The position numbers and the translations under genes are program-made. The notes under the pieces were generated by a model. That model did not search any database. It was not told the origin of the DNA and saw only the letters and a program-made list of their open reading frames with translations. A stretch of 34,315 nucleotides of DNA from a virus: IMG/VR virus record IMGVR_UViG_3300005882_000010, one strand, 5' to 3'. Of this stretch, positions 2,631 through 30,235 are shown in pieces (the stretch's first letter is position 1; every line of letters starts with the position of its first letter).

Positions 2631-2671
2631 CAACTGGTCGGATCACATAATTTTAAAATCCTTGTTATATT
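2631..2671 (+). promoter_or_regulatory. Motif copy S1 (CAACTGGTCGGAT, core 2633-2642) plus the -10-like hexamer TATATT (2666-2671). Candidate promoter of the accessory cassette.
   Basis: One of five co-oriented copies of ACTGGTCGGA. The core ends 23 nt before the -10-like hexamer and 69 nt before ATG 2712. It lies immediately after the terminator at 2602-2623. Confidence 0.5.
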
Positions 2672-2711
2672 TAAAGCTCAATTAATTAAGATAATCAAAG
2701 AGGGCAATGCT

Positions 2712-3032
2712 ATGTCACAACCAAAAACCATTAAAATTGATAACATTGAGTATGTTCGTTCAGACTCAGTATCTGTAGCGCCAACGAAAAAACAAATCGT
2801 TGTATTGCAGCGCGGCTGGGTAGTTGTTGGAGATGTTGAGAAAACGCCGGAAGAAGTAAAGATCTCAAATTGCTCAGTAATTAGAATTTGGGGTACGTCG
2901 AATGGCTTAGGCGAGATTGCTGAAAGCGGGCCAACTTCAAAAACCAAGCTCGATAAATGTCCGGATGTTATTGTGCATCCCCTTTCTGTAGTCTTATACA
3001 TGAACGTAAACGAGGAAAAATGGAATGGTTGA
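2712..3032 (+). CDS. Hypothetical protein, first gene of a two-gene accessory cassette
   Basis: 106-aa ORF with the purine-rich stretch agaggg upstream. Its stop (3030-3032) overlaps the start of the repeat-protein gene (ATG 3025). Confidence 0.75.
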   Translation: MSQPKTIKIDNIEYVRSDSVSVAPTKKQIVVLQRGWVVVGDVEKTPEEVKISNCSVIRIWGTSNGLGEIAESGPTSKTKLDKCPDVIVHPLSVVLYMNVNEEKWNG

Positions 3033-3336
3033 TATAGAGGGATTTGCGGTTAAAATAAACGGCGACGCCGACGGCTACGGCGACGGATACGGCTACGGCG
3101 ACGGCTCAGGCGGCGGATACGGCTCAGGCTACGGCGACGCCGACGGCTACGGCTACGGCGGCGGCTACGGCGACGGATACGGCTACGGCGACGGCTCAGG
3201 CGGCGGATACGGCTCAGGCTACGGCGACGCCGACGGCTACGGCTACGGCGACGGCTCAGGCTACGGCTCAGGCTACGGCTACGCCGACGACGGCTGGCAA
3301 CTGGTCGGATTTCTTAAACCTCAAAAATCATTATAA
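3025..3336 (+). CDS. Gly/Tyr/Asp low-complexity tandem-repeat protein
   Basis: 103-aa ORF. About 75 residues are G-Y-G / G-D-G / G-S-G repeats with 17 Tyr. Short non-repetitive ends: MVDIEGFAVKING... and ...DDGWQLVGFLKPQKSL. Translationally overlapped with the upstream gene. Confidence 0.7.
   Translation: MVDIEGFAVKINGDADGYGDGYGYGDGSGGGYGSGYGDADGYGYGGGYGDGYGYGDGSGGGYGSGYGDADGYGYGDGSGYGSGYGYADDGWQLVGFLKPQKSL
3061..3290 (+). repeat. GC-rich in-frame tandem repeat. A perfect 89-nt duplication (3072-3160 = 3162-3250, period 90 nt) lies on a short-period ggctac/ggcgac background.
   Basis: Direct comparison of the sequence lines. The two copies are separated by a single base, g3161. Codon choice is almost only GGC/TAC/GAC/TCA/GCC. 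GC content is far above the flanks. Confidence 0.9.
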
Positions 3337-3337
3337 T
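3298..3337 (+). promoter_or_regulatory. Motif copy S5 (CAACTGGTCGGATTTCTT, core 3300-3309) plus consensus -10 TATAAT (3332-3337). Candidate promoter for 3373..3666.
   Basis: The motif lies inside the 3' end of the repeat-protein ORF. TATAAT starts 22 nt after the core, and ATG 3373 follows 63 nt after the core. Confidence 0.5.
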
Positions 3338-3372
3338 AAGTCACATAGGGTTAACGAACGGGGTAACGAACA

Positions 3373-3666
3373 ATGGCTAAATGTAAAACTGTATGGTCTG
3401 GCTCAGATAGCTACGGTCGTAGCGTAGAAGTTGCGGAATCTGTAAATGGTAGTTTTTTCTTTAGAGTTTCCGAACGTACCCGCTATGGCTTGCAGTGGTC
3501 TAAGTGGCAGTCACACGAGCCAACTTTTGAAACTCACGGTGTTAATCAAAGCGACAACTGTCCGGAGCATGAGCGCGTTTTCGAGTACAGCGAACCCCAA
3601 ATGTTTTGTGGCTTCAATAAGATGGAAAAGCACGACAAAGCGCCTAACTACAGACTGCCCTATTAA
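3373..3666 (+). CDS. Hypothetical protein
   Basis: 97-aa ORF, the only long frame here. Preceded by gggtaacgaacaATG. No recognisable family. Confidence 0.65.
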   Translation: MAKCKTVWSGSDSYGRSVEVAESVNGSFFFRVSERTRYGLQWSKWQSHEPTFETHGVNQSDNCPEHERVFEYSEPQMFCGFNKMEKHDKAPNYRLPY

Positions 3667-3673
3667 AGGTTTA

Positions 3674-3822
3674 CCGCCCCAGCCTAACCAAGATTGTGTG
3701 AACATCGCTAGTGCATGCTGTGGAAGGTGGTCAAAGGCGATGCGGCTGGGGTGGTGATTAAGCTAGTTAGTCACCAATTTCGTGTCATGCCAGTCTACCC
3801 CTACTGGTGGTGCAAAAAGGGG
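3674..3822 (+). ncRNA. Candidate structured RNA segment: nested long-range helices, a 9-bp hairpin and a possible H-type pseudoknot
   Basis: An 11-bp helix 3674-3684/3744-3754 (one G-U) encloses a 6-bp helix 3703-3708/3737-3742. Hairpin GGTGATTAA-gctag-TTAGTCACC at 3753-3775. CCAGT/ACTGG (3790-3794/3803-3807), whose loop CCCCT (3798-3802) can pair with AGGGG (3818-3822). No credible ORF. Pairings found by eye only. Confidence 0.35.
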
Positions 3823-3892
3823 CACTTAATTTAAGCTCATCTGACACGTTTAGAGTGAGTTTCGGAATCGTTAAACGGTTCCAGTGGTTTAT

Positions 3893-4004
3893 GCGAGAGA
3901 GTTAGTCAAATCTGAGGTATTGATTTACCAATGGCTAATGGGTGAAAGGTGGAGTCTACCATGCCTGACCATCTTTGCAGGTTCGATTCCTGCCTCTCGC
4001 TCCA
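3893..4004 (+). ncRNA. tRNA-like element: perfect 7-bp acceptor stem, canonical T-arm, discriminator T and encoded CCA, around a non-canonical 77-nt core
   Basis: GCGAGAG (3893-3899) pairs perfectly with CTCTCGC (3994-4000). T-arm is GCAGG-TTCGATT-CCTGC (3977-3993), then T-CCA (4001-4004). The total of 112 nt is too long for a tRNA. I found no 5-bp stem with a 7-nt loop that could be an anticodon arm. Confidence 0.5.
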
Positions 4005-4195
4005 AATATAGGCAATATACCATGAATAGAGATGAGAACCATCGTCGAGCCAGAAGAATAGTAAGTAGCTGGCCCAAATGGAAAAGGGAGGTTTCTTTAA
4101 CCAAACACTCTCTACGTTTAAATTGTGCAGCGAAAACTGGAGATAAAGCATTAACATGATGCGAGTCTGCGAAGGCGAGTAGCTGCATTACCTTT

Positions 4196-4224
4196 TTTTC
4201 ATCTTATAGCCTTTCTGGTATAAT
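4196..4224 (+). promoter_or_regulatory. Sigma70-type promoter candidate with extended -10 (TTTTCA - 17 nt - TGgTATAAT)
   Basis: TGGTATAAT at 4216-4224 matches TGnTATAAT. The -35-like TTTTCA is at 4196-4201. It precedes ATG 4248, which has the SD-like sequence gagagg. Confidence 0.5.
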
Positions 4225-4247
4225 ATCCTCACTATTCAGAGAGGTTT

Positions 4248-4433
4248 ATGTTCATGAGTAAGTCACTATATAAGCATATCAGCAAAGAAGATAAAAAGCG
4301 CCATTTCTCAAACGAGCTATGGGGCGGCAAGGGCGATTGCAGATTTAGAGGCAGACGCTCAAACGATGAAGTATCCGAAGAGCTGGATAACTACCGCAAG
4401 AACTACGATTTAATTGATTGGTCTAAAAAGTAA
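4248..4433 (+). CDS. Hypothetical small basic protein
   Basis: 61-aa ORF, SD-like gagagg 5 nt upstream, downstream of the extended -10 promoter candidate. Confidence 0.6.
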   Translation: MFMSKSLYKHISKEDKKRHFSNELWGGKGDCRFRGRRSNDEVSEELDNYRKNYDLIDWSKK

Positions 4434-4466
4434 CAATCAAGCCCCTTTACTATAGGAGATACGGCG

Positions 4467-4643
4467 ATGAAAGAAGATTTGATAAGTAAAATCATATCAT
4501 GCGACAAGTGTGAAAAGACCACATCATCGATAAATATGTGCGTTGTGCATGCTATAGAATGGACATGCATGACACTAGTAAAAAATAACTATGGTTTTGA
4601 TGAGTTTTGTGTGGACAATATGGAGATTGATACCAATGGCTAA
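4467..4643 (+). CDS. Hypothetical Cys-rich small protein (58 aa, below the ORF-track cutoff)
   Basis: My own translation: MKEDLISKIISCDKCEKTTSSINMCVVHAIEWTCMTLVKNNYGFDEFCVDNMEIDTNG*. SD aggag lies 8 nt upstream. The stop overlaps ATG 4636 of the next gene (ATGGCTAA). Confidence 0.5.
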   Translation: MKEDLISKIISCDKCEKTTSSINMCVVHAIEWTCMTLVKNNYGFDEFCVDNMEIDTNG

Positions 4644-4968
4644 GACACGCGCACAGCAAAACAGAACTATACGACAAGAGGCTCTCAGGGAGCAATTATC
4701 TCAGCAAAAGCACATCGAGAAAGTTGTTGATAATATTGTGGAAATGGAAAAGCTGGATTTCTTCAAAAAGGGGGATAATGGCAAAATTGACTATAAAGTG
4801 GCGCAATCCACTAAATTTAGGTTAGATGCACTAAGAGCAGCTAACGAGCAGCGCCTTAAACTGATTAATAAATACTTGCCTGACCTTAAGAACACTGAGA
4901 TAACAGGTGAAGGTGGCGGTTCAATTACTATTAAAGTAACGGAGTACGGATCATCAGACGATGATTGA
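4636..4968 (+). CDS. Putative terminase small subunit
   Basis: 110-aa helical, charged protein (MAKTRAQQNRTIRQEALREQL...NKYLPDLK) immediately upstream of TerL and overlapping it. The internal ATG 4636 is chosen because it is coupled to the upstream ORF stop. Confidence 0.55.
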   Translation: MAKTRAQQNRTIRQEALREQLSQQKHIEKVVDNIVEMEKLDFFKKGDNGKIDYKVAQSTKFRLDALRAANEQRLKLINKYLPDLKNTEITGEGGGSITIKVTEYGSSDDD

Positions 4969-6295
4969 AATCTCTATTCCTAATCAATGGGAGCCTAGAC
5001 CGCATCAGCTTCCATTCTTTAAAGCGATGGACTCAGGAAAGAAGCGAGCCTGTTTAGTGTGGCATAGACGGGCGGGAAAGGACTCATCTGTTTTAAACTT
5101 CACAGCTAAGGAAATGTTTAAACGTGTCGGTAACTACTGGCACCTATTCCCCAAGCAACGGCAAGCCCGAAAGGCAATCTGGAATGGTATTGACGGATAC
5201 GGCCGAAAGATAATCAACCAGGTATTCCCCAAAGAAGTCGTAAAGCGCCAAGACACTACAGAGATGATGATTGAGCTGGTGAATGGCTCAACGTGGCAAT
5301 TATGCGGCTCTGATAACTATGACTCACTGGTGGGGGCTAACCCTGTTGGCGTTGTATTCTCCGAGTGGTCATTATGTGACCCCAATGCGTGGAACTATGT
5401 TCGCCCAATGCTTGCCGAGAATGGAGGCTGGGCAATATTTATTTATACGGCTCGTGGTAAGAATCACGGGTACACGCTGTATAACATGGCAAAAAATAAC
5501 CCTGAGTGGCATTGTGAGCTATTAACCGTCAATGACACGAGAAGGGAGGACGGTTCGCCAGTTATAGGGCCGGAGATAATACAGGCCGAGCGTGACGAGG
5601 GAATGAGTGAGGAAATGATTCAGCAGGAGTATTATTGTTCCTTCGATGCTCAGATACCTGGAGCTATTTACGCCATGCAATTATCAGCAGCAAGGGACGA
5701 CGGGCGAATCACTCGGCTACCTATCGACCCAGCATTGGAAGTGCATACCGCATGGGATTTGGGCATATCGGATGCTATGTCGCTGTGGTTCTTTCAAGCT
5801 ATCGGCAAAGAGATACGCCTTGTTCACTACTACGAGGACCACAACAAAGGCATGGAGCACTACGCTCAATACTTGCAGGAGTTCAAATTAAAACACGGTA
5901 TTCAGTACGGAGAGCATCTAGCGCCGCACGATATTGAGGTTAGAGAGCTAACCAGCGGCAGAAGCAGGAAAGAGATAGCTCGCGATATGGGCATCATGTT
6001 CAGGACTGTGGAGCGGCCCAAGACCAAATCAGAAGGGCATCAGGCAGTCAGAAAGATATTTCCTATGCTGTGGATTGACGACCATAGAGCCGAGTTGGGA
6101 TTGTCTTGTTTGTCTGAGTATCAGTATGAATGGGACGACAAGAAGAAGGTGTTTAAGGACAATCCGCTACACAACTGGGCGTCTCATGGTGCTGACGCAT
6201 TGCAAACCCTTGCGTTAGGCTGGCGCGAAAGAATGGTATCAGGCAGGCCAAAGCCACAGCCATCTCAAATGAAGGTCAATATCAATGTCTGGTGA
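4961..6295 (+). CDS. terL: Terminase large subunit
   Basis: 444 aa. Walker A-like WHRRAGKDS, then VVFSEW (Walker B-like) and a C-terminal nuclease-type region (TAWDLGISD...). Typical position upstream of the portal. Confidence 0.9.
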   Translation: MIEISIPNQWEPRPHQLPFFKAMDSGKKRACLVWHRRAGKDSSVLNFTAKEMFKRVGNYWHLFPKQRQARKAIWNGIDGYGRKIINQVFPKEVVKRQDTTEMMIELVNGSTWQLCGSDNYDSLVGANPVGVVFSEWSLCDPNAWNYVRPMLAENGGWAIFIYTARGKNHGYTLYNMAKNNPEWHCELLTVNDTRREDGSPVIGPEIIQAERDEGMSEEMIQQEYYCSFDAQIPGAIYAMQLSAARDDGRITRLPIDPALEVHTAWDLGISDAMSLWFFQAIGKEIRLVHYYEDHNKGMEHYAQYLQEFKLKHGIQYGEHLAPHDIEVRELTSGRSRKEIARDMGIMFRTVERPKTKSEGHQAVRKIFPMLWIDDHRAELGLSCLSEYQYEWDDKKKVFKDNPLHNWASHGADALQTLALGWRERMVSGRPKPQPSQMKVNINVW

Positions 6296-6617
6296 GGTTT
6301 ATTACATCTGCTTCAAGGAGGCAGCCAGACCAAAATGGTTTATGCGCTTTCTAAAAAGAGGCTTTTCCCATTGCTTTGCATTACAGCCTTATAACGGGAA
6401 GTGGGTTAAGTATGAGTATGGTCACGGTGTATTGAGAGTAGACGTGATAGACGATGTGACTGACGTCAAAGAAGGCTGTATAATCATTAAGCATTACAGA
6501 GAGTCCAATGACAAATACTTTGGTATAATGAGCTGTGTGGGCTTTGTTAAGTGGGCGTGCGGAATACCTGGATTCAGTTTAACGCCTTATCAACTATACA
6601 AGAGGCTGAAGAAATGA
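6285..6617 (+). CDS. Hypothetical protein
   Basis: 110-aa ORF overlapping the TerL 3' end, co-oriented, no competing frame. Confidence 0.65.
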   Translation: MSGEVYYICFKEAARPKWFMRFLKRGFSHCFALQPYNGKWVKYEYGHGVLRVDVIDDVTDVKEGCIIIKHYRESNDKYFGIMSCVGFVKWACGIPGFSLTPYQLYKRLKK

Positions 6618-7000
6618 GTTTCCTAAAGAAAGCATTAAGGGCGGGGTTGACCGGAGGTGGTACAGGCCGTATCGCTGATCCGTTAAAGCTAGGCGAAGCC
6701 AGAGATAAAAAGAAACCAAAGGCACCAGAAAAGACAGCGCAGCAAGAGGCAATAGAGCGCCGTCAATCGATGTTGTTGGATGAAGAAATTGAAGAGCAAG
6801 AGGAGTTGCTTAAGTCTTTGGCATCAGGCCGAAGCTTCAAAGAGTCACTATTGGCCGGAACACCTAAGAGCCGCAAAGCAGCGGCAAGAGGCGCTAGCAT
6901 GTTAGGTAGTGGCACTCGTAGCGGTGGCGGCTCAGGCGGCGGTGGTGGCGGTGGTGGCTCTACTCCATCCACACCTTCACGCGGAACAATGACGAGATAA
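6614..7000 (+). CDS. Hypothetical protein with a C-terminal poly-Gly/Ser tract
   Basis: ATG 6614 overlaps the upstream stop (ATGA). Product begins MSFLKKALRAGLTGGG and contains GGGSGGGGGGGGSTPSTP. Confidence 0.65.
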   Translation: MSFLKKALRAGLTGGGTGRIADPLKLGEARDKKKPKAPEKTAQQEAIERRQSMLLDEEIEEQEELLKSLASGRSFKESLLAGTPKSRKAAARGASMLGSGTRSGGGSGGGGGGGGSTPSTPSRGTMTR

Positions 7001-7002
7001 CT

Positions 7003-8577
7003 ATGGCTAGCATATTACCTCCCAAGCTCAGCGACTTTGAGCATGTAAATCAGCGCTTCAGGAAAGCATTTGACATTGAGTCTCAATGGTTCGATTTGCT
7101 CGATGATGTCTATGAGTACGTCTTGCCCCAGCGAAATCTATTTAATGAGGATAGGGAAGGCTCCAAGAAGATGGATAGGATCTATGATTCTACCGCTTTA
7201 CAGGCCATTCAAGAAGGCGCAAGTCGAGTACAAGAGAACACAGCCCCTATCTGGAAGCGTTGGGCTAAGGCTGAATTGAGCGACTTTGCCAAGAAAGAGC
7301 TTGAGCAGTTGGACGATGCTCCGAGTATCGAAGAGATACAGAAGAATCTCGATAAGAACAATGAGATAGTATTCGACTACATCAACCGCTCTAATTTCTC
7401 AACTCAGTTTTATGAATTCGTATTGGATTGGCTGGTTGGCACCGGAACACTTCGGATAGACGAGGAAGACAGTTTTGATATGCCTTTCTCATTCCACGCC
7501 ATTCCACCAAAAGGCATTGCCTATGAAGAAGCGCCAGACGGCGTTATTCGCACTCATTGGCGCAAATTCAAGGTAAAAGGCGCTCACATTGAAAAGAAGT
7601 GGCCTGGCTTCCGATTAAGCTCTGAGCTTGCCGACAAGATAAGCAACGACCCAAATGTAATGGTCGATATTTGCGAGGGCATGGTTTATGACACCGACTC
7701 AGGCAAATATTACGGCGTTGCATGGACTAAGGGTGAAGATCATTTCTCATGGGAGTTCGACTTTGGCGAGTCCAGCCCGTGGATAACAGGTCGCTATGCT
7801 AAGGCAGCGGGGGAAACTCGTGGACGAGGCCCAGCAATGCAGGTTTATCCCGATATTCGCTCATTGAATAAAGCCAAAGAATTTGTCTTGCAAAAGGCAG
7901 CTATTGACCTTGCGGGGATGTGGACAGCCACAGATGACGGAGTGACTAACCCTTACACCCTGACAATATCGCCAGGTGTAGTTATTCCTGTAGGCTCAAA
8001 CAATACAAGCAATCCATCTATCGCTCGACTCGATACCGCAACCAATCTGCAATTGGCGCAGTTTGAAATTTCTGAGCTGCAAATGGCAATTAAGAAGGCT
8101 TTCTTTAACGACCTCCGAGACCCTACAGGCCCAGTGAGAAGCGCCACAGAGATTGCTATTGAAGCCCGAGAGTTGGCAAAGCGTATCGGCTCAGCATTTG
8201 GACGACTGCAAACAGAGGTATTAGTTCCCATCTTGAAGCGGGTTTATCACATTCTGAACAAGAAAGGGATTATCGATATTGACCTGAATAATATTGAAAC
8301 TCAGGTTAAATTCACCTCTCCACTCGCGGCAGCGCAAGACCAAGAGGACTTGATAGCGATTCAGCAAGCTGTAGAGTTTACCGTAATGACAGCAGGCCAA
8401 GAGCGTGCTCAGATGGCGTTTAAGCTGGAGGACTTTGGAACCTATGCAGCACGACTAACCGGAATGCCTCAAGAGCTGGTAAGAAGCGAGTCAGAGAAGA
8501 AGCAGGTTATCCAGGCAGGGGCGCAAGCAGCAGCCGCGCAAATGCCGCAACAAGAACCACAGGAGCCTAGCCAATGA
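7003..8577 (+). CDS. Portal (head-to-tail connector) protein
   Basis: 524 aa. Size and position (after TerL, before scaffold and capsid) match podovirus portals such as T7 gp8 (about 540 aa). Acidic, Gln-rich C-terminus. Confidence 0.8.
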   Translation: MASILPPKLSDFEHVNQRFRKAFDIESQWFDLLDDVYEYVLPQRNLFNEDREGSKKMDRIYDSTALQAIQEGASRVQENTAPIWKRWAKAELSDFAKKELEQLDDAPSIEEIQKNLDKNNEIVFDYINRSNFSTQFYEFVLDWLVGTGTLRIDEEDSFDMPFSFHAIPPKGIAYEEAPDGVIRTHWRKFKVKGAHIEKKWPGFRLSSELADKISNDPNVMVDICEGMVYDTDSGKYYGVAWTKGEDHFSWEFDFGESSPWITGRYAKAAGETRGRGPAMQVYPDIRSLNKAKEFVLQKAAIDLAGMWTATDDGVTNPYTLTISPGVVIPVGSNNTSNPSIARLDTATNLQLAQFEISELQMAIKKAFFNDLRDPTGPVRSATEIAIEARELAKRIGSAFGRLQTEVLVPILKRVYHILNKKGIIDIDLNNIETQVKFTSPLAAAQDQEDLIAIQQAVEFTVMTAGQERAQMAFKLEDFGTYAARLTGMPQELVRSESEKKQVIQAGAQAAAAQMPQQEPQEPSQ

Positions 8578-8858
8578 GCTGGAGTGACATTGAATTAGCA
8601 GGAAAAACCAAGGAAGAGAGGCGCAAGATAGCCGAGGACAGAAAGGCTAAGTCCGAGGAATTGTCCAAGAAGTTCAGCCGCGCATTCAATAGCGATGATG
8701 GCAAGGTGGTATTTGAGCACCTTTTTCAGCGTTTCGTATTGGATAATGATACTCCATTGAATGCGCCAAATCCCGAATACGAGGCCGGATATCACAATGG
8801 AGAAGCCGGAGTAATCAAATACATAACACACCAAATCACTAAAGCCAAAAACCTTTAA
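8574..8858 (+). CDS. Hypothetical protein (head module)
   Basis: 94-aa ORF, start overlaps the portal stop. Confidence 0.7.
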   Translation: MSWSDIELAGKTKEERRKIAEDRKAKSEELSKKFSRAFNSDDGKVVFEHLFQRFVLDNDTPLNAPNPEYEAGYHNGEAGVIKYITHQITKAKNL

Positions 8859-8867
8859 GGAGGTTCT

Positions 8868-9359
8868 ATGCCTGACCAGCAGCAAGCTGACACTCAGCAA
8901 GACGCCCATCAGGAGCTGATTGCCAAGGGAAAAGCGTTAGGGCTTAAGCAAGCCGCTAACATGAAGCCTGAAACCCTCATTAAGAAAATCGAGGAGATCG
9001 AAACCAGAGCGAAAGCCAAAGAGCAGAGTAGCAATGCTCATGCTGATATTGAGCGTATTAACGCTGAATCCATACCCGTCCAGGTTGACGTGGTGGACTT
9101 TGGAGCAAAGTTTTTAAAGTCCATTGGATTTGACTTTGAATGGCTCGGCCCTATCGCTAATCAATACGGGATAGAGCGTTTCGAGTATATCCATAAGTTT
9201 CGAGCGTTTCGAGTCTACAAGAATGGCGTTCACGTTGACTGGATTGACGTTAACGAGGTTGGTCTGCTTAACGGCAAGCGCCACCTATGCGAAATCCTTC
9301 TGCGTCATACACCAGTAGACAAGTCTCGCCGTTTATTCGATTTTCATTGGAGAGGTTAA
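8868..9359 (+). CDS. Hypothetical head-module protein with an N-terminal Rho-N/SAP-like helix-extended-helix motif
   Basis: 163 aa. LIAKGKALGLKQAANMKPETLIKKIEE resembles the Rho N-terminal/HeH motif. SD ggagg upstream. Confidence 0.65.
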   Translation: MPDQQQADTQQDAHQELIAKGKALGLKQAANMKPETLIKKIEEIETRAKAKEQSSNAHADIERINAESIPVQVDVVDFGAKFLKSIGFDFEWLGPIANQYGIERFEYIHKFRAFRVYKNGVHVDWIDVNEVGLLNGKRHLCEILLRHTPVDKSRRLFDFHWRG

Positions 9360-9362
9360 TTT

Positions 9363-23466: not shown

Positions 23467-23490
23467 AAAACCCAGCAACTTAGCATAAAC

Positions 23491-23509: not shown

Positions 23510-23909
23510 CATTGCTCGGCCAAGGTACATGAATTCCATGCTCTGCCAGCTTTCGATTTAACACCTCGTAAATCTGCGTATATTCGGCTCTTTCCGGCTT
23601 TGTAGTTGATTCCTTTCCGGTCAGAGCCTTTTGCACAGGCCGCCAAAAGTGGTCCTTAACCAATTCAGGTGTAAACGGCACAGGATAACCCTCTTTCAAG
23701 AACAGCCTGAAATCATATCCCGCATCGTTCAAAGCATCAGCGACAAGCCTGCAATAAACATGCAGGGCTTTGTTTTGCTGACCACTCCTTTGCTTCCCTG
23801 TCCTTAAAGAAACTCGAAGATACTTGTGATTATTAAACATCTCATCGAGATAGCGCTTGTACCGCTCAAGCTCATAGACTGAGTTAATTACTTGTTCTTT
23901 AGATTCCAT
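23499..23909 (-). CDS. ninB: NinB/Orf-like recombination mediator
   Basis: 136 aa. RSGQQNKALHVYCRLVADAL and GKESTTKPERAEYTQIYEVLNRKLAEHGIHVPW parallel lambda NinB RSLDQNRKLWACLGDV and GQSTSRMRVGEFAELLELIQAFGTERGVKW (from memory). Confidence 0.55.
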   Translation of the reverse strand: MESKEQVINSVYELERYKRYLDEMFNNHKYLRVSLRTGKQRSGQQNKALHVYCRLVADALNDAGYDFRLFLKEGYPVPFTPELVKDHFWRPVQKALTGKESTTKPERAEYTQIYEVLNRKLAEHGIHVPWPSNGGE

Positions 23910-24091
23910 ATCGCTTTCTCAAGCTTTTTAATGTCCTCGCGCAATACTTTCATTTCGCTATCCATGCGTTTTTCCTGCTCTTCCTGGACCTCTTTCAGCA
24001 CTCGAACAGTCTTAGCCAAGTCCACAATCGCCACCTGCTCAGGCGTTAATTCTTCCTCGAATCCCCGTTCACCAAAATCTGGATGTGTCAT
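23888..24091 (-). CDS. Hypothetical coiled-coil protein
   Basis: 67-aa ORF. Its start overlaps the upstream stop (TAATG). Confidence 0.6.
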   Translation of the reverse strand: MTHPDFGERGFEEELTPEQVAIVDLAKTVRVLKEVQEEQEKRMDSEMKVLREDIKKLEKAIWNLKNK

Positions 24092-24606
24092 TATTCAACC
24101 TCCCAAGGCCAGCAATAGCCATCCTGCAACCCTTTAATCGTAAAAGCAGTTATCGCGGTGATGTAGTCCGAACCCATAATATAGATTGTCTTATACATTA
24201 CTTCCAACTCAAAGCCAGCCTCTTCTAGCTTTCCCATAAGCCCTTTAACATTTTTAAAATTCTCAGTACTAAACCAGTAGTTCATACGGGGCTTGCAGTA
24301 GTTCCACAAAAGATCGTCTTCGGAAGTGAAGCCATTTGGACTGATACATTTCAAATGACACATAACTGGAGAATTATCGAATCCGACGCGCATTGAAAAC
24401 AGACAATCAATACCGCTATTCACCAGCACACTCATATCAACAGGCTTTATCTCAGGCTCAAGTTTCTCTGCAATCTCTTTGCCGAATTTGTAGAGCTCTC
24501 CAGTCTTGCTTGTTTTAATTAACATTCCGTCTTTCTTTTGCTTCTCGAATAGCCTGTAACAATTTAAAGCGATTCGCTCATGTTCTTTCAATTCACTCTC
24601 TTTCAT
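24091..24606 (-). CDS. Hypothetical protein
   Basis: 171-aa ORF, SD aaggag 8 nt upstream, downstream of motif copy S3. Confidence 0.75.
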   Translation of the reverse strand: MKESELKEHERIALNCYRLFEKQKKDGMLIKTSKTGELYKFGKEIAEKLEPEIKPVDMSVLVNSGIDCLFSMRVGFDNSPVMCHLKCISPNGFTSEDDLLWNYCKPRMNYWFSTENFKNVKGLMGKLEEAGFELEVMYKTIYIMGSDYITAITAFTIKGLQDGYCWPWEVE

Positions 24607-24632
24607 TTCTGAACTCCTTAATTAACCTTTAC

Positions 24633-24833
24633 TCATTCTCTCACGCCCTTAGCGCACAACAAATCCGACCAGTTTTGCCGAGCAGCCCTGCATCCCTTCA
24701 CATCAACAACCTTCACGCTGAAATTCCACCATGACTTATCCACGACTTCATTTTTAATTCCTAGCTCGCAATCGCCCTCGACACTCAAATGAGGACAGTC
24801 ATTGCACCAGGTTTTAGCGCGAAGGTGTTTCAT
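24633..24833 (-). CDS. Hypothetical Cys-rich small protein
   Basis: ATG 24833 overlaps the upstream stop (ATGA). Product is 66 aa, MKHLRAKTWCNDCPHLSVEGDCELG... Confidence 0.6.
   Translation of the reverse strand: MKHLRAKTWCNDCPHLSVEGDCELGIKNEVVDKSWWNFSVKVVDVKGCRAARQNWSDLLCAKGVRE
24635..24675 (-). promoter_or_regulatory. Motif copy S3 (AAACTGGTCGGATTTGTTG, core 24673->24664) plus the -10-like hexamer GAGAAT (24640->24635)
   Basis: Shares 17 identical nt with copy S2. Lies within the 3' end of ORF 24633..24833. The core ends 23 nt before the -10-like hexamer and 57 nt before ATG 24606. Confidence 0.45.
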
Positions 24834-25096
24834 TGCCAGTTCATCACTGTGTGGTTTCGCAAAGTCTCTGAGCACTCATTAAATAAGTAAGTCGGCATGG
24901 TGCCAAACCGCTTGTTATTAATAATCACGTAAGTATATGGCTTGCCTTGGTGCCGGCACTCGTAGACCTTTTTAACGATGTTGATTTGCTTCTGCATCAC
25001 TAAGTCAGACTCAACCTTATCCCTGATATGCAGCGTATGAGTCACGAATGACGATAATCCGATGCATAGCACACACAATATAGCTGTGAATTTCAT
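24830..25096 (-). CDS. Small protein with an N-terminal signal/TM segment
   Basis: 88 aa, MKFTAILCVLCIGLSSFV... Confidence 0.65.
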   Translation of the reverse strand: MKFTAILCVLCIGLSSFVTHTLHIRDKVESDLVMQKQINIVKKVYECRHQGKPYTYVIINNKRFGTMPTYLFNECSETLRNHTVMNWQ

Positions 25097-25323
25097 TCCT
25101 CAATCCTCCACTTACTCTTACTCTCAATAACTAACACTTTACCCGATGGCAACTGGACAGACTTTCGGCCATGCTCCAATTGCCGCTTGTAATTCGCCAT
25201 GCTTGCGCTTATCGTCCGCTTGTCATCGAATGACAACCTCATATAGTGCCATGACTTATCCCACATGCTGACGAACTCAGGCGGCGGCTTGGCTTCTTTC
25301 GGTTGCTTCTTAGGCGGCATCAC
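25093..25323 (-). CDS. Hypothetical small basic protein
   Basis: 76-aa ORF, overlapping stops and starts with both neighbours. Confidence 0.6.
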   Translation of the reverse strand: MMPPKKQPKEAKPPPEFVSMWDKSWHYMRLSFDDKRTISASMANYKRQLEHGRKSVQLPSGKVLVIESKSKWRIEE

Positions 25324-25559
25324 CGATACCTCGCTAATAATCTATCTACCGCATTATCAAATGCGATATAAGCCAAATCTTCATCCACATCAGCTTCAAT
25401 CGCTGCATCTCTTACTATTCCGTACATCTCAATTGAACGCTCGATAAATCCCTTTTCCGAGCGCTCGATACAGTACACACATCGAATTGAGCCTGCATGT
25501 TTCCGCATTTCATCCTTTGAGCGGTCTTTTTGGCAAAGCGGACAGGCTTCAGGCTTCAT
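25320..25559 (-). CDS. Cys4 zinc-ribbon small protein
   Basis: 79 aa, CPLC ... CVYC. Confidence 0.65.
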   Translation of the reverse strand: MKPEACPLCQKDRSKDEMRKHAGSIRCVYCIERSEKGFIERSIEMYGIVRDAAIEADVDEDLAYIAFDNAVDRLLARYR

Positions 25560-26047
25560 TTTATCAATAACCCTGGCTTGCCCTTTTCTAACTTAGCGCC
25601 GTTGATTTCAGCCCCATCCTTGAGAGCCTTCTTAATCGCTGTTTTATCGGCCTCTTTCTTGACCTTGACGTATTCTTCCGGCAAGGCTTCGACATCTTCA
25701 ACCACGACAACATCAAGCGGCTTTTTAAGCGTTATGCGGAATTCTGGACACTCGATTTTAGTAATCCCTGAGAATTCCATATTGTCACGCAGATAATCGC
25801 GGAGCTTGTTAGCTTTGGCCTCTAGGACTTTTCGGCGCTCTGCAATGCGCTTTTCCGCTTGCTTCATTGCGTCAACATCGGATTGAATGTTCTGAAAGAA
25901 AGCTGCAACAGATTTGCATTTTTCCTGCAATTCACCCTCAAGCGCTGACATGGTGTCATCAAAGGTTTGCTCGTCAATATCATCCATCTCAAGCAATGCG
26001 AGAAATGTTGAGTTGTATTCAGCTGCAATTTCGTAAAGTTTAGCCAT
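25556..26047 (-). CDS. Siphovirus Gp157-like protein
   Basis: 163 aa. MAKLYEIAAEYNSTFLALLE...QAEKRIAERRKVLEAKANKLRDYL...ITKIECPEFRITLKK...LPEEY...IKKALKDGAEINGAKL follows the Gp157 family pattern. Confidence 0.8.
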   Translation of the reverse strand: MAKLYEIAAEYNSTFLALLEMDDIDEQTFDDTMSALEGELQEKCKSVAAFFQNIQSDVDAMKQAEKRIAERRKVLEAKANKLRDYLRDNMEFSGITKIECPEFRITLKKPLDVVVVEDVEALPEEYVKVKKEADKTAIKKALKDGAEINGAKLEKGKPGLLIK

Positions 26048-26546
26048 TTCGATTTCCTCTTTCTTCTGCTGGTAAAGCCCATTGTGGCAATGGCGGGTTT
26101 TGGAAGTTTCCGTAATTATCCAAATCTACCCACGACTGACCTAAATAGTACAAGTACCGGCCTATTCCGAATTTAACAGCGGCACGCTTAAATGCGTCCG
26201 AAATAGCGCCTTTTTCGCCTTCTGTCGCCGTATCGCCTGCGCCATCGCTCTTAGATATCCACTCCCCGTTTATCCGAACAGAGAGCTTGCAAATAAGCCT
26301 TCCTTGTTGCGTTTCCTCGTATTCGTCTTGCCAGTTCTCCATGCCGACCACATCATCTAGGCGCTTCATTACGTCACGGCTGTTGATGTAGGCCAAGGCT
26401 ATGCCTTTTGTAGGCTTTGCAAACTTATCGACAGTCTCTCTAGCCACCTTCTTTTGATTCGTTGCGCCAACTCGCCAATGGATTTCTTTTGCCTTAAACG
26501 GCTCTTTTAACTTAGCCAAAATATCACTTGCTTTTAATTCGCTCAT
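26040..26546 (-). CDS. Rad52/Sak-like single-strand annealing protein
   Basis: 168 aa. EIHWRVG...ALAYINSRDVMKRLDDVVG..NWQ...KGAISDAFKRAAVKFGIGRYLY is the Rad52-like signature. Confidence 0.8.
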   Translation of the reverse strand: MSELKASDILAKLKEPFKAKEIHWRVGATNQKKVARETVDKFAKPTKGIALAYINSRDVMKRLDDVVGMENWQDEYEETQQGRLICKLSVRINGEWISKSDGAGDTATEGEKGAISDAFKRAAVKFGIGRYLYYLGQSWVDLDNYGNFQNPPLPQWALPAEERGNRNG

Positions 26547-26688
26547 TCATCACCTCGATAGTTTCTTTTAAACTTGATTGCGCTGACCGGAGTCTTTCAA
26601 TCCATTCATTACTAAAAGGCTCGGGCTCACGCAATTCTTTTTCTTTAAACTCCTGCATTACAGTTTGCTCAAATTGCGCTTGACTCAT
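26524..26688 (-). CDS. Hypothetical 54-aa protein (below the ORF-track cutoff)
   Basis: My own translation: MSQAQFEQTVMQEFKEKELREPEPFSNEWIERLRSAQSSLKETIEVMNERIKSK*. The strong SD taGGAGGggat lies directly upstream. It fills an otherwise empty gap in a tightly packed operon. Confidence 0.55.
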   Translation of the reverse strand: MSQAQFEQTVMQEFKEKELREPEPFSNEWIERLRSAQSSLKETIEVMNERIKSK

Positions 26689-26696
26689 ATCCCCTC

Positions 26697-26993
26697 CTAA
26701 AAATTGAACAGCCTGTATTCTTGGATTAACTCTACCTTATGGCGTTTGGCGTAGCTTTCATCGGTTTTAATCAAATACTTAATAACACTACTGAAGGTTT
26801 TGTCATTAATAACTGAATCGACTAGAAGTGCAGCCCATTCAGGCTTCCCCATAATCGCCTCATACTCTTCACTGTAGTCCAGTTGGGTCAACAGCTCATC
26901 CAGCACTTCATCGGACTCGCGCGCTAGACTAAAATCTAACTCGTCACGGATTTCTTCGTTTTTCTGTGCTCTTTTAGCTTTCCACAGCATCAT
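26697..26993 (-). CDS. Hypothetical acidic protein
   Basis: 98-aa ORF, SD gaggtg upstream, first gene after the internal terminator and motif copy. Confidence 0.7.
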   Translation of the reverse strand: MMLWKAKRAQKNEEIRDELDFSLARESDEVLDELLTQLDYSEEYEAIMGKPEWAALLVDSVINDKTFSSVIKYLIKTDESYAKRHKVELIQEYRLFNF

Positions 26994-27029
26994 TTTTCAC
27001 CTCATTTATTGTTTAACTTCAGTACGTAC

Positions 27030-27070
27030 AGAATGCCATAAGTGAGGGTTAGAACAAATCCGACCAGTTA
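27030..27070 (-). promoter_or_regulatory. Motif copy S2 (TAACTGGTCGGATTTGTTC, core 27068->27059) with a weak -10-like hexamer CATTCT (27035->27030)
   Basis: Lies in a 136-bp non-coding gap, 16 nt downstream of the minus-strand terminator. The core ends 65 nt before ATG 26993. Followed by the palindrome GTACGTAC (27022-27029). Confidence 0.4.
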
Positions 27071-27084
27071 TTTTATTACCAGGG

Positions 27085-27112
27085 GATAAAAAGAACCCCG
27101 CCGAAGCGGGGT
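27085..27112 (-). terminator. Rho-independent terminator inside the leftward early unit
   Basis: Minus strand reads CCCCGC-ttcg-GCGGGG followed by TTCTTTTTAT. Confidence 0.75.
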
Positions 27113-27129
27113 AAAGGGTTGAGGGTTAA

Positions 27130-27327
27130 TCAACCATGGGAGGGTGTTTGAGATGAGGTGAGATAATTCTTTCTTAAACATTGTAGCTCTTTATTCAGCT
27201 TAATCAAAGCCCTCCTGTAATGCTCGATAGCCTCCTTCGAGAATGACTTTTCGGCCTGCTTTAATGCAGCCTTGCAAGCATCACGCCTGGCTTCGGTGTC
27301 GATTATTTCCTGGTGTAAATCATTCAT
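27130..27327 (-). CDS. Hypothetical coiled-coil protein
   Basis: 65-aa ORF, start overlaps the upstream stop. Confidence 0.6.
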   Translation of the reverse strand: MNDLHQEIIDTEARRDACKAALKQAEKSFSKEAIEHYRRALIKLNKELQCLRKNYLTSSQTPSHG

Positions 27328-27668
27328 TCTGCACCGCCCTTTTTTAACTCTTGATTAACTTTGTTTATATAAGATCGAAGAGTTGCCTTTGCTATTTCTT
27401 TCGCCCGTCCTTTGAGGTGGTCTAGCTCAAAGTTGCTAATAGCGGCTTCAAACGCATCTGCTTTGCGAGCTTTTAATTCCAGCTCTTGCATCTTGTTTTC
27501 AATGTGTCTTAATTCATTGTAGGCATTAATAATTAAATTATCCCGATGAAACAACTCTATTATCTCTCTTCTCTTTTCTTCTACAGTGCCGTCCATGCTA
27601 ACTTGATTTCTTAAGCACTTAAGTTCATTGCACTTACTTATTAAAATTTTTAAATAATCCACTTTCAC
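27324..27668 (-). CDS. Hypothetical coiled-coil protein
   Basis: 114-aa ORF, co-oriented and tightly packed. Confidence 0.65.
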   Translation of the reverse strand: MKVDYLKILISKCNELKCLRNQVSMDGTVEEKRREIIELFHRDNLIINAYNELRHIENKMQELELKARKADAFEAAISNFELDHLKGRAKEIAKATLRSYINKVNQELKKGGAE

Positions 27669-27671
27669 ACT

Positions 27672-28079
27672 TTAATCCGCCTTTTCAATTTCATCGATTG
27701 CGTTTTTTAGAGCCAGTACAGCCGTATCACCTCGCGTATACGAGTTACGCTGATTGTCTTTTGAGACTGCGCGACATAACCAATGGCTTTTTCTGTCGAA
27801 TAAATCGAACTTTAAAAGCGTTCTTTCTGCCTTCCCGTAAACTTCCAGCTCTTTCACTCTTTGTTGTAGCTTATAATAATCATTTTTGCTGGTATGATGC
27901 TCAGGAATAAAGTTGCTTAATGAGTGTAGTGTCGCGCAGTTTTTGCATGTAATATAAACTTCAGATAAATAGTTCTCTTCGCCTTCGCTGATGTCTCTGC
28001 CAGTGTCTACTATTTTCCACTCAAACTCATCATTGCAGCCGCAATTACCGCAAATAATATGAAGCCTTGATCTAGCCAT
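27672..28079 (-). CDS. Cys4 zinc-ribbon protein carrying the LQQRVKELE motif
   Basis: CGNCGC ... CKNC. ATG 28079 is preferred over the GTG at 28082. SD AAGGAG is embedded in the upstream gene's last codons. Confidence 0.7.
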   Translation of the reverse strand: MARSRLHIICGNCGCNDEFEWKIVDTGRDISEGEENYLSEVYITCKNCATLHSLSNFIPEHHTSKNDYYKLQQRVKELEVYGKAERTLLKFDLFDRKSHWLCRAVSKDNQRNSYTRGDTAVLALKNAIDEIEKAD

Positions 28080-28342
28080 CACTCATTCTCCTTTGGTGGC
28101 TTATATTTATGATTTTCCACATCAACAAAACCATGCCCATCTATATAACCTGTCTCGTCCGCCAGCTCGATGTAGTCGGTCAGTATTTTTTGTGATTGCT
28201 CAAGTTCATTAACTTTTTGCTGCAGCCTACCTATGTAGTCCAAAGCATCATCACAAGCATTAACAATAAAGACATAGCCCGCGCACTCTGGTGGATTATC
28301 AACAATCCAGCCTAGATTATTCAAAACCGTTTCACTGTCCAT
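28079..28342 (-). CDS. Hypothetical protein carrying LQQKVNELEQSQ
   Basis: ATG 28342 is preferred over the GTG at 28345. C-terminus ...KPPKENE. Confidence 0.65.
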   Translation of the reverse strand: MDSETVLNNLGWIVDNPPECAGYVFIVNACDDALDYIGRLQQKVNELEQSQKILTDYIELADETGYIDGHGFVDVENHKYKPPKENE

Positions 28343-28345
28343 CAC

Positions 28346-28663
28346 TCACTCCTTGCCTTTGGGAATGCGGGAGTTCTCAGGGCGCAAGAACTTTAAGTCA
28401 TACTCCTGTGCCAACTTATAATCATCGTTGTTAATGCCTGCTTCTGAAAGAATGTCGTTTGCAATTACAGGGCGGTCATGTATTTCATTAATTCGAGCAC
28501 AAGCCCAGATTATTCCTTGTGCAAAACCTTGCTTAAAGTTTGAGTTTTGTGATTGCTCCAGCTCTTTCACTCTTTGCTGTAGCCTTTTAAGTTCAACAAC
28601 TGCATCTTGAGCGTCACGCTTTAAAGGGTTGGTGCTACTTAACCTTTTTATCAAATCATTCAT
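28346..28663 (-). CDS. Hypothetical protein carrying LQQRVKELEQSQ
   Basis: ATG 28663 is preferred over the GTG at 28666. SD AAGGAG upstream. Confidence 0.65.
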   Translation of the reverse strand: MNDLIKRLSSTNPLKRDAQDAVVELKRLQQRVKELEQSQNSNFKQGFAQGIIWACARINEIHDRPVIANDILSEAGINNDDYKLAQEYDLKFLRPENSRIPKGKE

Positions 28664-28676
28664 CACCTATTCTCCT

Positions 28677-28868
28677 TTAAGGAATGCAACGTTCGCTTTT
28701 TCCGCAGTAGTGCATATCTGAGCAAAAATCTTCTGGATCACACTCAATAACATGTAAATCACCGCAGCTACGACAAGGGAATAGGCACTGTTCACCTGCT
28801 TCTAAATTGGGGTTGTATTGAAGTAATTCGTCTAGATCATTATGCTGGCTGGTATTACTCACGCTCAT
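28677..28868 (-). CDS. Cys-rich zinc-ribbon-like small protein
   Basis: 63 aa with 8 Cys (CLFPCRSCGDLHVIEC...CSDMHYCGKSERC). Confidence 0.6.
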   Translation of the reverse strand: MSVSNTSQHNDLDELLQYNPNLEAGEQCLFPCRSCGDLHVIECDPEDFCSDMHYCGKSERCIP

Positions 28869-29085
28869 TCTCCTTTGGTGGCTCAGGCAATGGCATCCAG
28901 TGAGTAACGTGATTTAATTTTTCGTCCAGATGACTCATTCTCCACCAATATGCGCCCGACTTGATTTTTACAAAACACGCCATTAATATTTCACCGTTAT
29001 CGATCACCAAGACATCATTGCTTCTATAGGCTCCAGCCTTGCCCACTTCTGGCAATCTGTCATCAACACTTATCCACTTACTCAT
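28855..29085 (-). CDS. DUF551-like protein
   Basis: MSKWISVDDRLPE...VLV...THWMPLPEPPKE matches the DUF551 pattern. Confidence 0.7.
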   Translation of the reverse strand: MSKWISVDDRLPEVGKAGAYRSNDVLVIDNGEILMACFVKIKSGAYWWRMSHLDEKLNHVTHWMPLPEPPKENERE

Positions 29086-29372
29086 AACTCACCTCTTTCA
29101 TATCGCTTTAACCTTTCCGATTCTTTCCCTGCAATCTCAATCTTTCTTTTGAGCAATTGTCTGTTTGCGTTGCCTATTATGCTATCCGTCATATCCAGAC
29201 CTCTAAAAGTCTCGGTTTTCGCGGATTCTTCAGCTATTATTTCATTTCGTTGCCAGTCTCGATGCTCAATAACTTCATCAAAACACCCCACGCAAGACAC
29301 AGCCCCTCTGTACTCGTAAGCGTCCATAGCATCGACTTTTTTACCGCATTTACTGCATTGATATTCACTCAT
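29082..29372 (-). CDS. Cys4 zinc-ribbon protein
   Basis: 96 aa, CSKC ... CVGC. Confidence 0.65.
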   Translation of the reverse strand: MSEYQCSKCGKKVDAMDAYEYRGAVSCVGCFDEVIEHRDWQRNEIIAEESAKTETFRGLDMTDSIIGNANRQLLKRKIEIAGKESERLKRYERGEL

Positions 29373-29388
29373 ACCCTCACCTCACCTT

Positions 29389-29601
29389 TTAAATACGATT
29401 AAAAGAAATCACTTCCATATTCTCATTAGTGCCATATCTTTCCAGATACTCAGCTTTTGCCGCATTAATACACTCTCTAAATGCTTTAGCTGGTGCAGGG
29501 AAAAAAGATCGGTATGTTACTACGTAATGCCCCCAAGCGAGACTACCATTTCCGTCATTGTGATACAGTTTAACGCGCATAAAATAGGTTCTTTTAATCA
29601 C
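29389..29601 (-). CDS. Hypothetical protein (GTG start)
   Basis: 70-aa ORF, purine-rich ggtgaggtgagaga upstream. Confidence 0.55.
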   Translation of the reverse strand: MIKRTYFMRVKLYHNDGNGSLAWGHYVVTYRSFFPAPAKAFRECINAAKAEYLERYGTNENMEVISFNRI

Positions 29602-29610
29602 TCTCTCACC

Positions 29611-29694
29611 TCACCAAACAACCATTGCGACAATCGGACACAACGCAAACAAGCATCGGTCAAACCACTTTTCTTGCCAGATAATTTCGTTCAT
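29611..29694 (-). CDS. Possible 27-aa hydrophobic peptide
   Basis: My own translation: MNEIIWQEKWFDRCLFALCPIVAMVVW*. Its ATG shares a base with the upstream TGA (TGATG). It fills the only gap in this stretch. Confidence 0.3.
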   Translation of the reverse strand: MNEIIWQEKWFDRCLFALCPIVAMVVW

Positions 29695-29882
29695 CAATCT
29701 ACCCTCATAATTTTACGCATAATCACAGCCGACCATCGTTCGATTGACTCTCTGATTAAAGCTCTGTCTTTCGGACTCCTGGCGGCTCGTTTAACCTCAT
29801 CATCTATCAAGCATGAGCCGTGAAGATGTGGATTTAACTTAGTCTCGAATATGTCGATATTAACTTGTGCTGGAGTTTTCAT
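29694..29882 (-). CDS. Hypothetical protein
   Basis: 62-aa ORF, co-oriented and tightly packed. Confidence 0.55.
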   Translation of the reverse strand: MKTPAQVNIDIFETKLNPHLHGSCLIDDEVKRAARSPKDRALIRESIERWSAVIMRKIMRVD

Positions 29883-29884
29883 AA

Positions 29885-30154
29885 TTAAGCCTTTGGATTA
29901 TTATCTGGCTCTTTGAAGGCGCACATTTCGACAGCACTGATATAAAGTCGAAACTCGTTAAAGTCCTTAGTCTTAAACACCACCGGATCTCCATCCCAAT
30001 CGATAGACGCTTTGACAGCATACAGCGGCGCGTAATCCGAAGTCGTGTAGTAACAATCAATCTTTTTGACCGCCCATAAGGACGTAAAAACCGTAAAAAA
30101 AGCCAATCCAAGCACTGAAAGCAAAATTCCAACAAAGATTTTTTCGCCGTTCAT
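29885..30154 (-). CDS. Small membrane protein, first gene of the leftward unit
   Basis: ATG 30154 lies 9 nt after SD AGGAG (30168->30164). The track start at 30163 is a GTG with no spacing. TM segment IFVGILLSVLGLAFFTVF. Confidence 0.7.
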   Translation of the reverse strand: MNGEKIFVGILLSVLGLAFFTVFTSLWAVKKIDCYYTTSDYAPLYAVKASIDWDGDPVVFKTKDFNEFRLYISAVEMCAFKEPDNNPKA

Positions 30155-30188
30155 CTCAATCACTCCTGTTATTCAACCTGTAACCAGT

Positions 30189-30214
30189 ATTATCCACCAT
30201 TCACCATTTTTCAA
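30189..30214 (-). promoter_or_regulatory. Candidate leftward promoter elements (TTGAAA ... GATAAT) separated by a tandem heptamer AATGGTG AATGGTG
   Basis: Minus strand reads TTGAAA (30214->30209), AATGGTGAATGGTG (30208->30195), GATAAT (30194->30189). The spacer is only 14 nt, so the assignment is uncertain. Confidence 0.3.
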
Positions 30215-30222
30215 TCGGTTTT

Positions 30223-30235
30223 AGACTGGTCGGAG
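30223..30235 (+). promoter_or_regulatory. Motif copy S4 (AGACTGGTCGGAG, core 30225-30234) in the divergent control region
   Basis: Same 10-mer core. Lies 14 nt upstream of the -35 of the rightward promoter candidate. Confidence 0.45.

Follow-up and report, generated by a model that had tools for sequence, protein, structure and literature searches.

The window analysed here, the whole 34,315-nucleotide (nt) stretch of the IMG/VR virus record IMGVR_UViG_3300005882_000010, carries five exact copies of a 10-nt motif, ACTGGTCGGA, which is an activator-type box overlapping the -35 region of sigma70 promoters with an extended -10 element. On the strength of sequence comparison, we consider it likely that each copy is an operator for the host regulator FadR, that host FadR activates the four internal operon promoters of this phage, and that phage expression is thereby tied to the acyl-CoA status of the cell. 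Like many unrelated phages from the sea, the window phage probably turns its operons on by means of this lipid sensor of the host.

An exact search located the five copies at 2633-2642(+), 3300-3309(+), 24664-24673(-), 27059-27068(-) and 30225-30234(+), hereafter boxes (or sites) 1 to 5, all of them reading in the local direction of transcription, in agreement with a preliminary description of this DNA. The excess over chance that had been claimed there was also borne out: the mean chance expectation is 0.04 copies, and five were never reached in 100 dinucleotide-preserving shuffles. No further copies were present in the window at one mismatch, and copies with two mismatches occurred at chance level. 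Boxes 3 and 4 are the same 17-mer (AACTGGTCGGATTTGTT), and three of the motif sites match a 14-mer, AACTGGTCGGATTT, without a mismatch. Among the over-represented 10-mers of the window, ACTGGTCGGA is the sole dispersed one, if a tandem repeat in coding sequence (GYG) and a single word that encodes coiled coil are set aside. Boxes 2 and 3 lie inside the 3' ends of open reading frames (ORFs) in different frames (QLVGF versus NWSDL), which upholds the earlier view that conservation acts at the nucleotide level.

Resemblance of the motif to the FadR operator

The motif resembles the FadR site of Escherichia coli fabA, and this likeness was tested by sequence search. The FadR operator has been published as a 17-bp palindrome, aaCTGGTCnGACC(T/A)Gtt (PMC9329746); the 17-mer of sites 3 and 4 departs from this consensus at two positions, and site 5 has a perfect left half and nothing more. 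Scanning the window with the consensus at up to three mismatches returned five distinct sites (four of the five copies plus 31586-31602) against 0.30 expected, and the same scan of Alteromonas phage XX1924, a cultured siphophage with the host Alteromonas litorea (TF-22) and a G+C content of 43.7%, returned nine distinct sites against 0.28 expected. In form, the boxes agree with the 17-bp pseudo-palindromic operator of the FadR subfamily of the GntR family.

FadR is an activator of fabA and fabB that comes off the DNA in response to long-chain acyl-CoA (PMC3460868). Validated probe sites are AACTGATCGGACTTGTT for E. coli fabA, GGCTGATCGGACTTGTT for E. coli fabB and AGCTGATCGGAGTTGTT for Shewanella oneidensis fabA (PMC4537474, Table 2), the last of which is bound reversibly by both the E. 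coli and the Shewanella FadR (PMC4537474). The right half GGAnTTGTT of sites 3 and 4 is common to these three activating sites. In sequence searches the fabA 50-mer CCGAACTGATCGGACTTGTTCAGCGTACACGTGTTAGCTATCCTGCGTGC matched essentially all of 5,426 E. coli genomes at 100% identity, immediately upstream of fabA, and the operator itself (AACTGATCGGACTTGTT) gave a 100% match 57 nt upstream of that gene, with the hexamer TATCCT 25 nt after GGA and the start codon at 63 nt. The FadR site in E. coli fabA is described as occupying the '-40 region'.

The operator of the FadR-activated fabA and fabB genes of E. coli, Vibrio and Shewanella is nearly the same as that of the phage, CTG(G/A)TCGGAnTTGTT. 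The phage version differs in that its left half-site is the perfect consensus CTGGTC, not CTGATC, and in that no FabR palindrome follows the box. Furthermore, the phage boxes lie on phage genomes, in several copies per genome and with phage operons downstream, and their binding and activation by FadR are predicted.

Two weaker FadR-like matches were also present in the window, AAGTGGTCTGACCTTTC at 31586-31602(-) with three mismatches and CTGATCGGA at 467-475(+) with a fabA-type left half. Neither has a -10 element at the distance typical of the family, and both may be chance matches.

Promoter geometry at the five boxes

The boxes and their associated promoter and terminator elements are:

2632..2648, + strand: FadR-type box 1, AACTGGTCGGATCACAT, three mismatches to the FadR 17-mer, 13 nt past the terminator hairpin 2600-2619
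2663..2671, + strand: extended -10 of promoter 1, TGtTATATT (promoter scan: ATCACA-18-TATATT with TG), ahead of gene 2712-3032
3299..3315, + strand: FadR-type box 2, AACTGGTCGGATTTCTT, three mismatches to the FadR 17-mer, within the 3' end of ORF 3025-3336
3332..3337, + strand: -10 hexamer TATAAT of promoter 2, ahead of gene 3373-3666 and then the packaging and structural genes
24658..24674, - strand: FadR-type box 3, AACTGGTCGGATTTGTT, two mismatches to the FadR 17-mer, within the 3' end of ORF 24633-24875
24635..24643, - strand: extended -10 of promoter 3, TGaGAGAAT, ahead of gene 24606 to 24091
27053..27069, - strand: FadR-type box 4, AACTGGTCGGATTTGTT, two mismatches to the FadR 17-mer, 25 nt past the terminator hairpin 27112-27095
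27030..27038, - strand: extended -10 of promoter 4, TGgCATTCT, ahead of gene 26993 to 26697 and the Rad52/Gp157 recombination module
30224..30240, + strand: FadR-type box 5, GACTGGTCGGAGGACTC, between divergent early promoters, with either inferred start site about 52 nt from its centre
30249..30276, + strand: rightward sigma70-like early promoter, TTGATG-16-TATAAT
30186..30214, - strand: leftward sigma70-like early promoter, TTGAAA-17-AATACT
2600..2629, + strand: intrinsic-terminator-like hairpin (2600-2619) and T-run, end of the rightward replication/lysis operon
27085..27112, - strand: intrinsic-terminator-like hairpin ACCCCGCTTCGGCGGGGT and T-run, end of the leftward early operon

At sites 1 to 4 the box is followed by a -10-like hexamer (TATATT at 2666-2671, TATAAT at 3332-3337, GAGAAT at 24640 to 24635 and CATTCT at 27035 to 27030) that starts 24, 23, 24 and 24 nt after GGA, respectively, and the next start codon lies 69, 63, 57 and 65 nt from the motif; the spacings and the 57-69 nt range reported previously were all reproduced. 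In all four hexamers the second base is A and the sixth is T, and because TG stands at +21/22 in sites 1, 3 and 4, these three are extended -10 promoters (TGn). The earlier statement that none of the sites has a -35 was too strong: a TTGACA-like -35 is weak here, but partial elements are present at sites 3 (TTGTTG) and 4 (TTGTTC), each with a 16-nt spacer, and the promoter scan assigned ATCACA with a spacer of 18 to site 1. Relative to the predicted start sites, the box centre lies near -40.5, and four of the five window sites have a class II-like geometry, with the box over -40/-35 at a fixed distance from the -10.

The same arrangement is found in fabA-type promoters, in which the box covers -40/-35 about 24-25 nt upstream of TAnnnT, the -35 is weak and the start codon is about 60 nt from the box (63 nt in fabA; median of 59.5 nt in the phage family described below).

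Two of the boxes, 1 and 4, stand behind rho-independent terminators as had been described, with hairpins and T-runs at 2600-2619(+) and 27112-27095(-). The preliminary description had allowed for a signal at the RNA level. A role in processing, antitermination or translation would be in keeping with the co-orientation of the motif with transcription, the presence of two copies within transcribed ORF ends and the weak hairpin predictions overlapping sites 2 and 3. However, the predicted folds differ by site and are no stabler than those of shuffled sequences (z-scores -1.05 to +0.84), there was no Rfam match, the two copies that follow terminators would be transcribed poorly from the upstream operon, and the conserved downstream partner of the motif is a -10-like DNA element. 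A role in RNA is thus extremely improbable in our view.

The fifth motif copy lies 14 nt upstream of TTGATG (30249), the -35 of the TTGATG-16-TATAAT promoter, confirming the position given before. Its placement between both early promoters, out of the activating geometry, would suit an alternative in which FadR or a FadR-like host regulator binds as a repressor and holds the promoters silent up to a rise in acyl-CoA, or in which the numerous boxes on phage DNA under replication act as a FadR sink that depletes the fad and fab promoters of the host and thereby rewires host lipid metabolism; most of the FadR regulon is repressed by FadR (PMC3460868), and some near-perfect palindromes in other viral loci, for example ACTGGTCGGATCAGTT in locus L004, have no -10 at the usual distance. 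On the other side, TGnTAnnnT stands at a fixed spacing from the box and -35 elements are weak, the box occupies the position that it has in fabA, where FadR activates, and the FadR sites that are known to repress lie over the start of transcription (PMC9329746). We judge this alternative unlikely on the whole; box 5 and the palindromic family members that have no -10 are the likeliest places for a repressor or sink role.

Other candidate elements were tried and rejected. By eye, the GG-N10-GC spacing of a sigma54 promoter is absent, there is no conserved -10 CGT or TCAAA as in RpoE or extracytoplasmic function (ECF) sigma promoters, the direct repeat of a PhoB box is weak, and PdhR- or LldR-type GntR boxes have TTGGT where CTGGTC is found here. 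The orientation of the motif also flips at the presumed origin, as a signal of replication direction would, but the fixed distances to the -10 and to the start codon in many genomes favour transcription.

Box-carrying genomes, unrelated and related

Box and promoter are found together about 100 times more, among other viral contigs and in cultured phage XX1924. An exact 14-mer scan of IMG/VR gave single-copy chance matches only, and scans with ACTGGTCGGATTTGTT and ACTGGTCGGAGTTGTT returned 26 and 64 stretches, respectively, compared with 65 for a reversed-sequence control 16-mer. Since the control (65) and the real 16-mer (64) could not be told apart by raw counts, these counts are no evidence, and copies per locus and promoter context were used instead. 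By these measures, ACTGGTCNGA occurred 85 times in new G-variant loci (460 kb of DNA) compared with 4 times in control loci (588 kb); at least two copies were present in 23 G-variant loci and in no control locus; and a TAnnnT hexamer stood at +23 to +26 of the seed in 38 of 58 G-variant cases compared with 3 of 65 controls.

A first family set was drawn from 23 sources (the window, its relatives, XX1924 and T-variant loci; 263 kb in total) and contained 54 distinct box instances against about 2 expected, with the consensus aACTGGTCgGA[G/T]T[T/A]GTT. A TAnnnT hexamer at the modal offset of 24 nt after GGA was present in 26 of the 54 instances, 15 of those with TGn, and a same-sense ribosome-binding site with an ORF start 40-90 nt downstream was present in 32 (median 59.5 nt). 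XX1924 carries three exact boxes and five with one mismatch, seven of these eight being co-oriented with the next gene, and all five of the one-mismatch copies vary solely at the 'n' position of the FadR consensus (as G, A or T). Across the family the same position is G in 46 instances, A in 6 and T in 2; the family set was gathered with N allowed only at this position, and it is therefore XX1924 that provides the unbiased test of its freedom. As in the FadR operator, the central n is free and the flanking CTGGTC and GA are fixed.

Several palindromic members (L004 at 5591(-), L057 at 14770(+) and L080 at 12602(+)) carry a near-perfect palindrome, ACTGGTCGGA[T/G]CAGTT, with a conserved AAAGCGCAACAACAGAAACAGGG after it and no -10 at the usual distance; they may use the operator in another way, possibly for repression.

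Essentially no proteins are common to the window and XX1924, whose genome is complete, or to the window and the other box-bearing loci, and this makes a phage-encoded recognition factor unlikely. The window itself is an entire Joint Genome Institute (JGI) contig whose bases 1-99 are identical to 34217-34315, and on account of these identical 99-base ends it is a complete circular genome of 34,216 bp. Searches of it turned up no RNA polymerase, sigma factor, integrase or GntR-family protein: Pfam searches of 38 small ORFs gave no GntR-family match above the cut-off and no sigma factor, and PHROGs searches of the large ORFs returned structural, packaging and replication roles only. A promoter for a T7-like phage polymerase was rejected, as no ORF of the circular genome matches an RNA polymerase. 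A phage-encoded FadR or GntR protein was likewise rejected, with none in the Pfam scan of the window ORFs and no FadR homologue in 498 kb of multi-box loci searched by phmmer (the query was the E. coli FadR sequence, checked against PDB entries 1HW1 and 1E2X). Because no RNA polymerase, sigma factor or FadR-like protein is encoded, the phage would rely on a host protein.

An activator or sigma-like factor encoded by the phage, defining a phage-specific middle or late promoter class of the MotA kind, would be compatible with the perfect identity of the five copies and the lack of one-mismatch copies, with their location behind terminators and at the starts of transcription units, and with the many small early ORFs that have no known function. 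Yet the box is also carried by phages with essentially no common protein, no candidate factor of the families named above was found, and the box equals a known host operator, so that we regard this explanation as highly unlikely. The two candidate binders proposed earlier fared no better, as neither is common to the box-carrying phages; ORF 30376-31002 is a lambda-O/DnaD-like initiator, and ORF 32516-32887 had no Pfam match. In phage T4, the MotA box is centred near -30 and requires the phage proteins MotA and AsiA (sigma appropriation). T4 middle promoters resemble those of the window in having a conserved box in place of a good -35 together with a good or extended -10, but the window box is centred near -40 rather than -30 and no MotA/AsiA-type factor or other phage protein is common to the box-carrying phages; the analogy drawn in the preliminary description was accordingly abandoned and a MotA-box middle promoter rejected. 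Of the promoter class suggested there, in which a factor-binding box replaces the -35, what stands is a DNA-level, orientation-fixed, class II-like element at -35/-40. The label 'phage-specific' does not, since the box matches the host FadR consensus and the fabA/fabB activating sites and recurs in phages that share essentially no proteins.

The motif was absent from all 81 loci related through the large terminase (63-82% amino-acid identity; two distant ones at 46-47%), which have in common with the window structural genes only, and metagenomic Rad52 relatives do not carry the box. Locus L201, a syntenic relative of the leftward region with about 78-91% DNA identity, has the exact motif at both homologous positions, box 3 being conserved there, too. 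The homology between L201 and the window starts exactly at box 4, with unrelated DNA upstream of the box, and the short contigs L213, L215 and L217 retain box 3 with its -10 and leader, fused to different downstream genes. Such junctions are what would be seen if the boxes were recombination joints or mobile promoter cassettes with no regulatory factor of their own, but this would leave unexplained the FadR match and the conserved -10 spacing and start-codon distance in unrelated phages, and module exchange is an expected by-product of conserved promoter sequences. As an account of the boxes it is very improbable; the role as mosaic joints is real and most plausibly follows from the sharing of promoter sequences. 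Locus L216, which has other gene content (YopX, RecT), carries two motif copies, one of them directly behind a terminator.

About 20 of the terminase relatives (L131, L133, L134, L137, L138, L142-L144 and others) have a conserved stretch, ACTGGCCGGACTATGACAACTTGAAACCAGACTG..GAGGG...ATG, that is one mismatch from the 10-mer and lies on the minus strand 1.4-2 kb upstream of the large terminase gene, pointing away from it. This stretch may simply be coding sequence.

The window genome (44.8% G+C) belongs to a podophage. Its structural genes are T7-like and comprise those for the large terminase, portal, capsid, tail tube, internal virion protein and tail fibre. It also carries a lambda O/P-like replication module with SSB and NinG, an M15 endolysin with spanin-like genes for lysis, and the Rad52/Gp157 recombination module in the leftward region. 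The rightward gene run extends from about 30.3 kb across the contig junction up to 23.5 kb and the leftward run from 30.16 kb down to 23.5 kb; the NinG gene (33612-34259) spans the junction into the gene at 40-510. No close DNA relative was found among cultured phages, and the best matches of the portal protein are about 34% identical. ORF 3025-3336, whose last codons contain box 2, consists nearly throughout of a GYGDG/GYGSG-type tandem repeat (DNA period 6-18) and had no significant family match. The stretch 3757-4247 (about 490 nt) has no convincing ORF, contains hairpins at 3752-3776 and 3864-3882, gave no tRNA or Rfam match and could hold a site for packaging, a replication origin or a small RNA gene; it ends in a sigma70-like promoter with TG (TTTTCA-17-TATAAT, 4196-4224) ahead of gene 4248. 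Three adjacent small early ORFs at 27672-28666(-) have in common a coiled-coil segment (L/QQRVKELE...) that gives rise to the repeated 10-mer AAGAGCTGGA, and on the basis of this shared segment they are probably paralogues.

Proposed action of host FadR

In the proposed mechanism, host FadR, a dimer of the GntR family, would bind each predicted box. At boxes 1 to 4 the 17-bp box would lie at about -46 to -30 of a sigma70 promoter with a weak -35 (TTGTTN or none), where FadR would bring in RNA polymerase or hold it in place, as at fabA. On the structural side, box 1 would restart transcription of the 2712 unit behind the rightward replication/lysis terminator, and box 2 would do so ahead of gene 3373 and the genes for packaging and structure; box 3 would act ahead of the 24606 unit, and box 4 behind the leftward early terminator, ahead of the recombination module. 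Box 5 would be bound between the divergent early promoters, with an effect there that could be activation or repression. Because acyl-CoA releases FadR, expression of the boxed units would fall in a host that imports or recycles long-chain fatty acids. FadR proteins are interchangeable and, to our knowledge, FadR is confined to certain gammaproteobacterial orders. The host is probably Alteromonas or a related gammaproteobacterium, and reconstruction recovered a FadR regulon in every one of nine 'other Alteromonadales' genomes, Alteromonas macleodii among them (PMC5343134, supplement).

A number of observations weigh against this reading. What the sequences show is the operator match, the promoter geometry and the return of the box in unrelated phages; every functional step, including FadR binding and the sign of regulation, is one that we infer from the DNA. 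The right half-site is degenerate (CC replaced by TT or GT), sites 1 (ATCACAT) and 5 (GGACTC) are poor matches to it, and the identity of ten bases in all five copies is tighter than is usual for the operators of metabolic regulators. Box 5 falls outside the class II geometry, and the hexamers GAGAAT and CATTCT have no T at position 1. The FabA homologues listed were from Enterobacterales, Pasteurellaceae and Plesiomonas, with none from Alteromonadales, and so provided no Alteromonas fabA or fad promoter for comparison. Another regulator of the GntR family, FadR subfamily, with the same half-site preference is possible. Finally, Alteromonas phage ZP6 (L238, MK203850) has no FadR-type boxes (0 found, 0.53 expected), and use of the box is for this reason taken to be lineage-specific, not general among Alteromonas phages. 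ZP6, a cultured podophage, resembles the window in genome layout and encodes PurZ (diaminopurine DNA).

FadR, its operator, the activating geometry of fabA and host-factor boxes in phage promoters are all known already. Examples of the last are the PhoB and NtcA boxes of cyanophages and the CRP, IHF and LexA sites of coliphages and CTXphi. There, as here, a host metabolic or stress regulator conditions phage expression in place of a phage factor; what differs here is that the predicted regulator is FadR, an acyl-CoA sensor, and that its boxes mark most of the recognisable promoters of the genome, not one auxiliary gene. The literature searched held no report of FadR boxes in phage promoters, either singly or as a recurrent element of unrelated phages, and a search with the motif string returned unrelated primer sequences only.

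A wider proposal is tentative, and on balance less likely than not: a guild of otherwise unrelated phages of marine gammaproteobacteria (Alteromonas and relatives) may have handed most of their non-early transcription to FadR, so that structural and recombination genes would be on only with FadR bound at low long-chain acyl-CoA, the lytic cycle would be slowed or halted by exogenous fatty acids or by turnover of the membrane, and the multicopy boxes on replicating DNA could titrate FadR and alter the lipid metabolism of the host. If the assignment to FadR is true, a host metabolite, long-chain acyl-CoA, would be a direct signal to phages developing in abundant marine copiotrophs, through a regulator and a promoter design understood from E. 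coli. It would explain how transcription restarts behind terminators in small podophages and siphophages that have no polymerase, sigma factor or activator of their own, and it would supply a simple sequence signature for host prediction.

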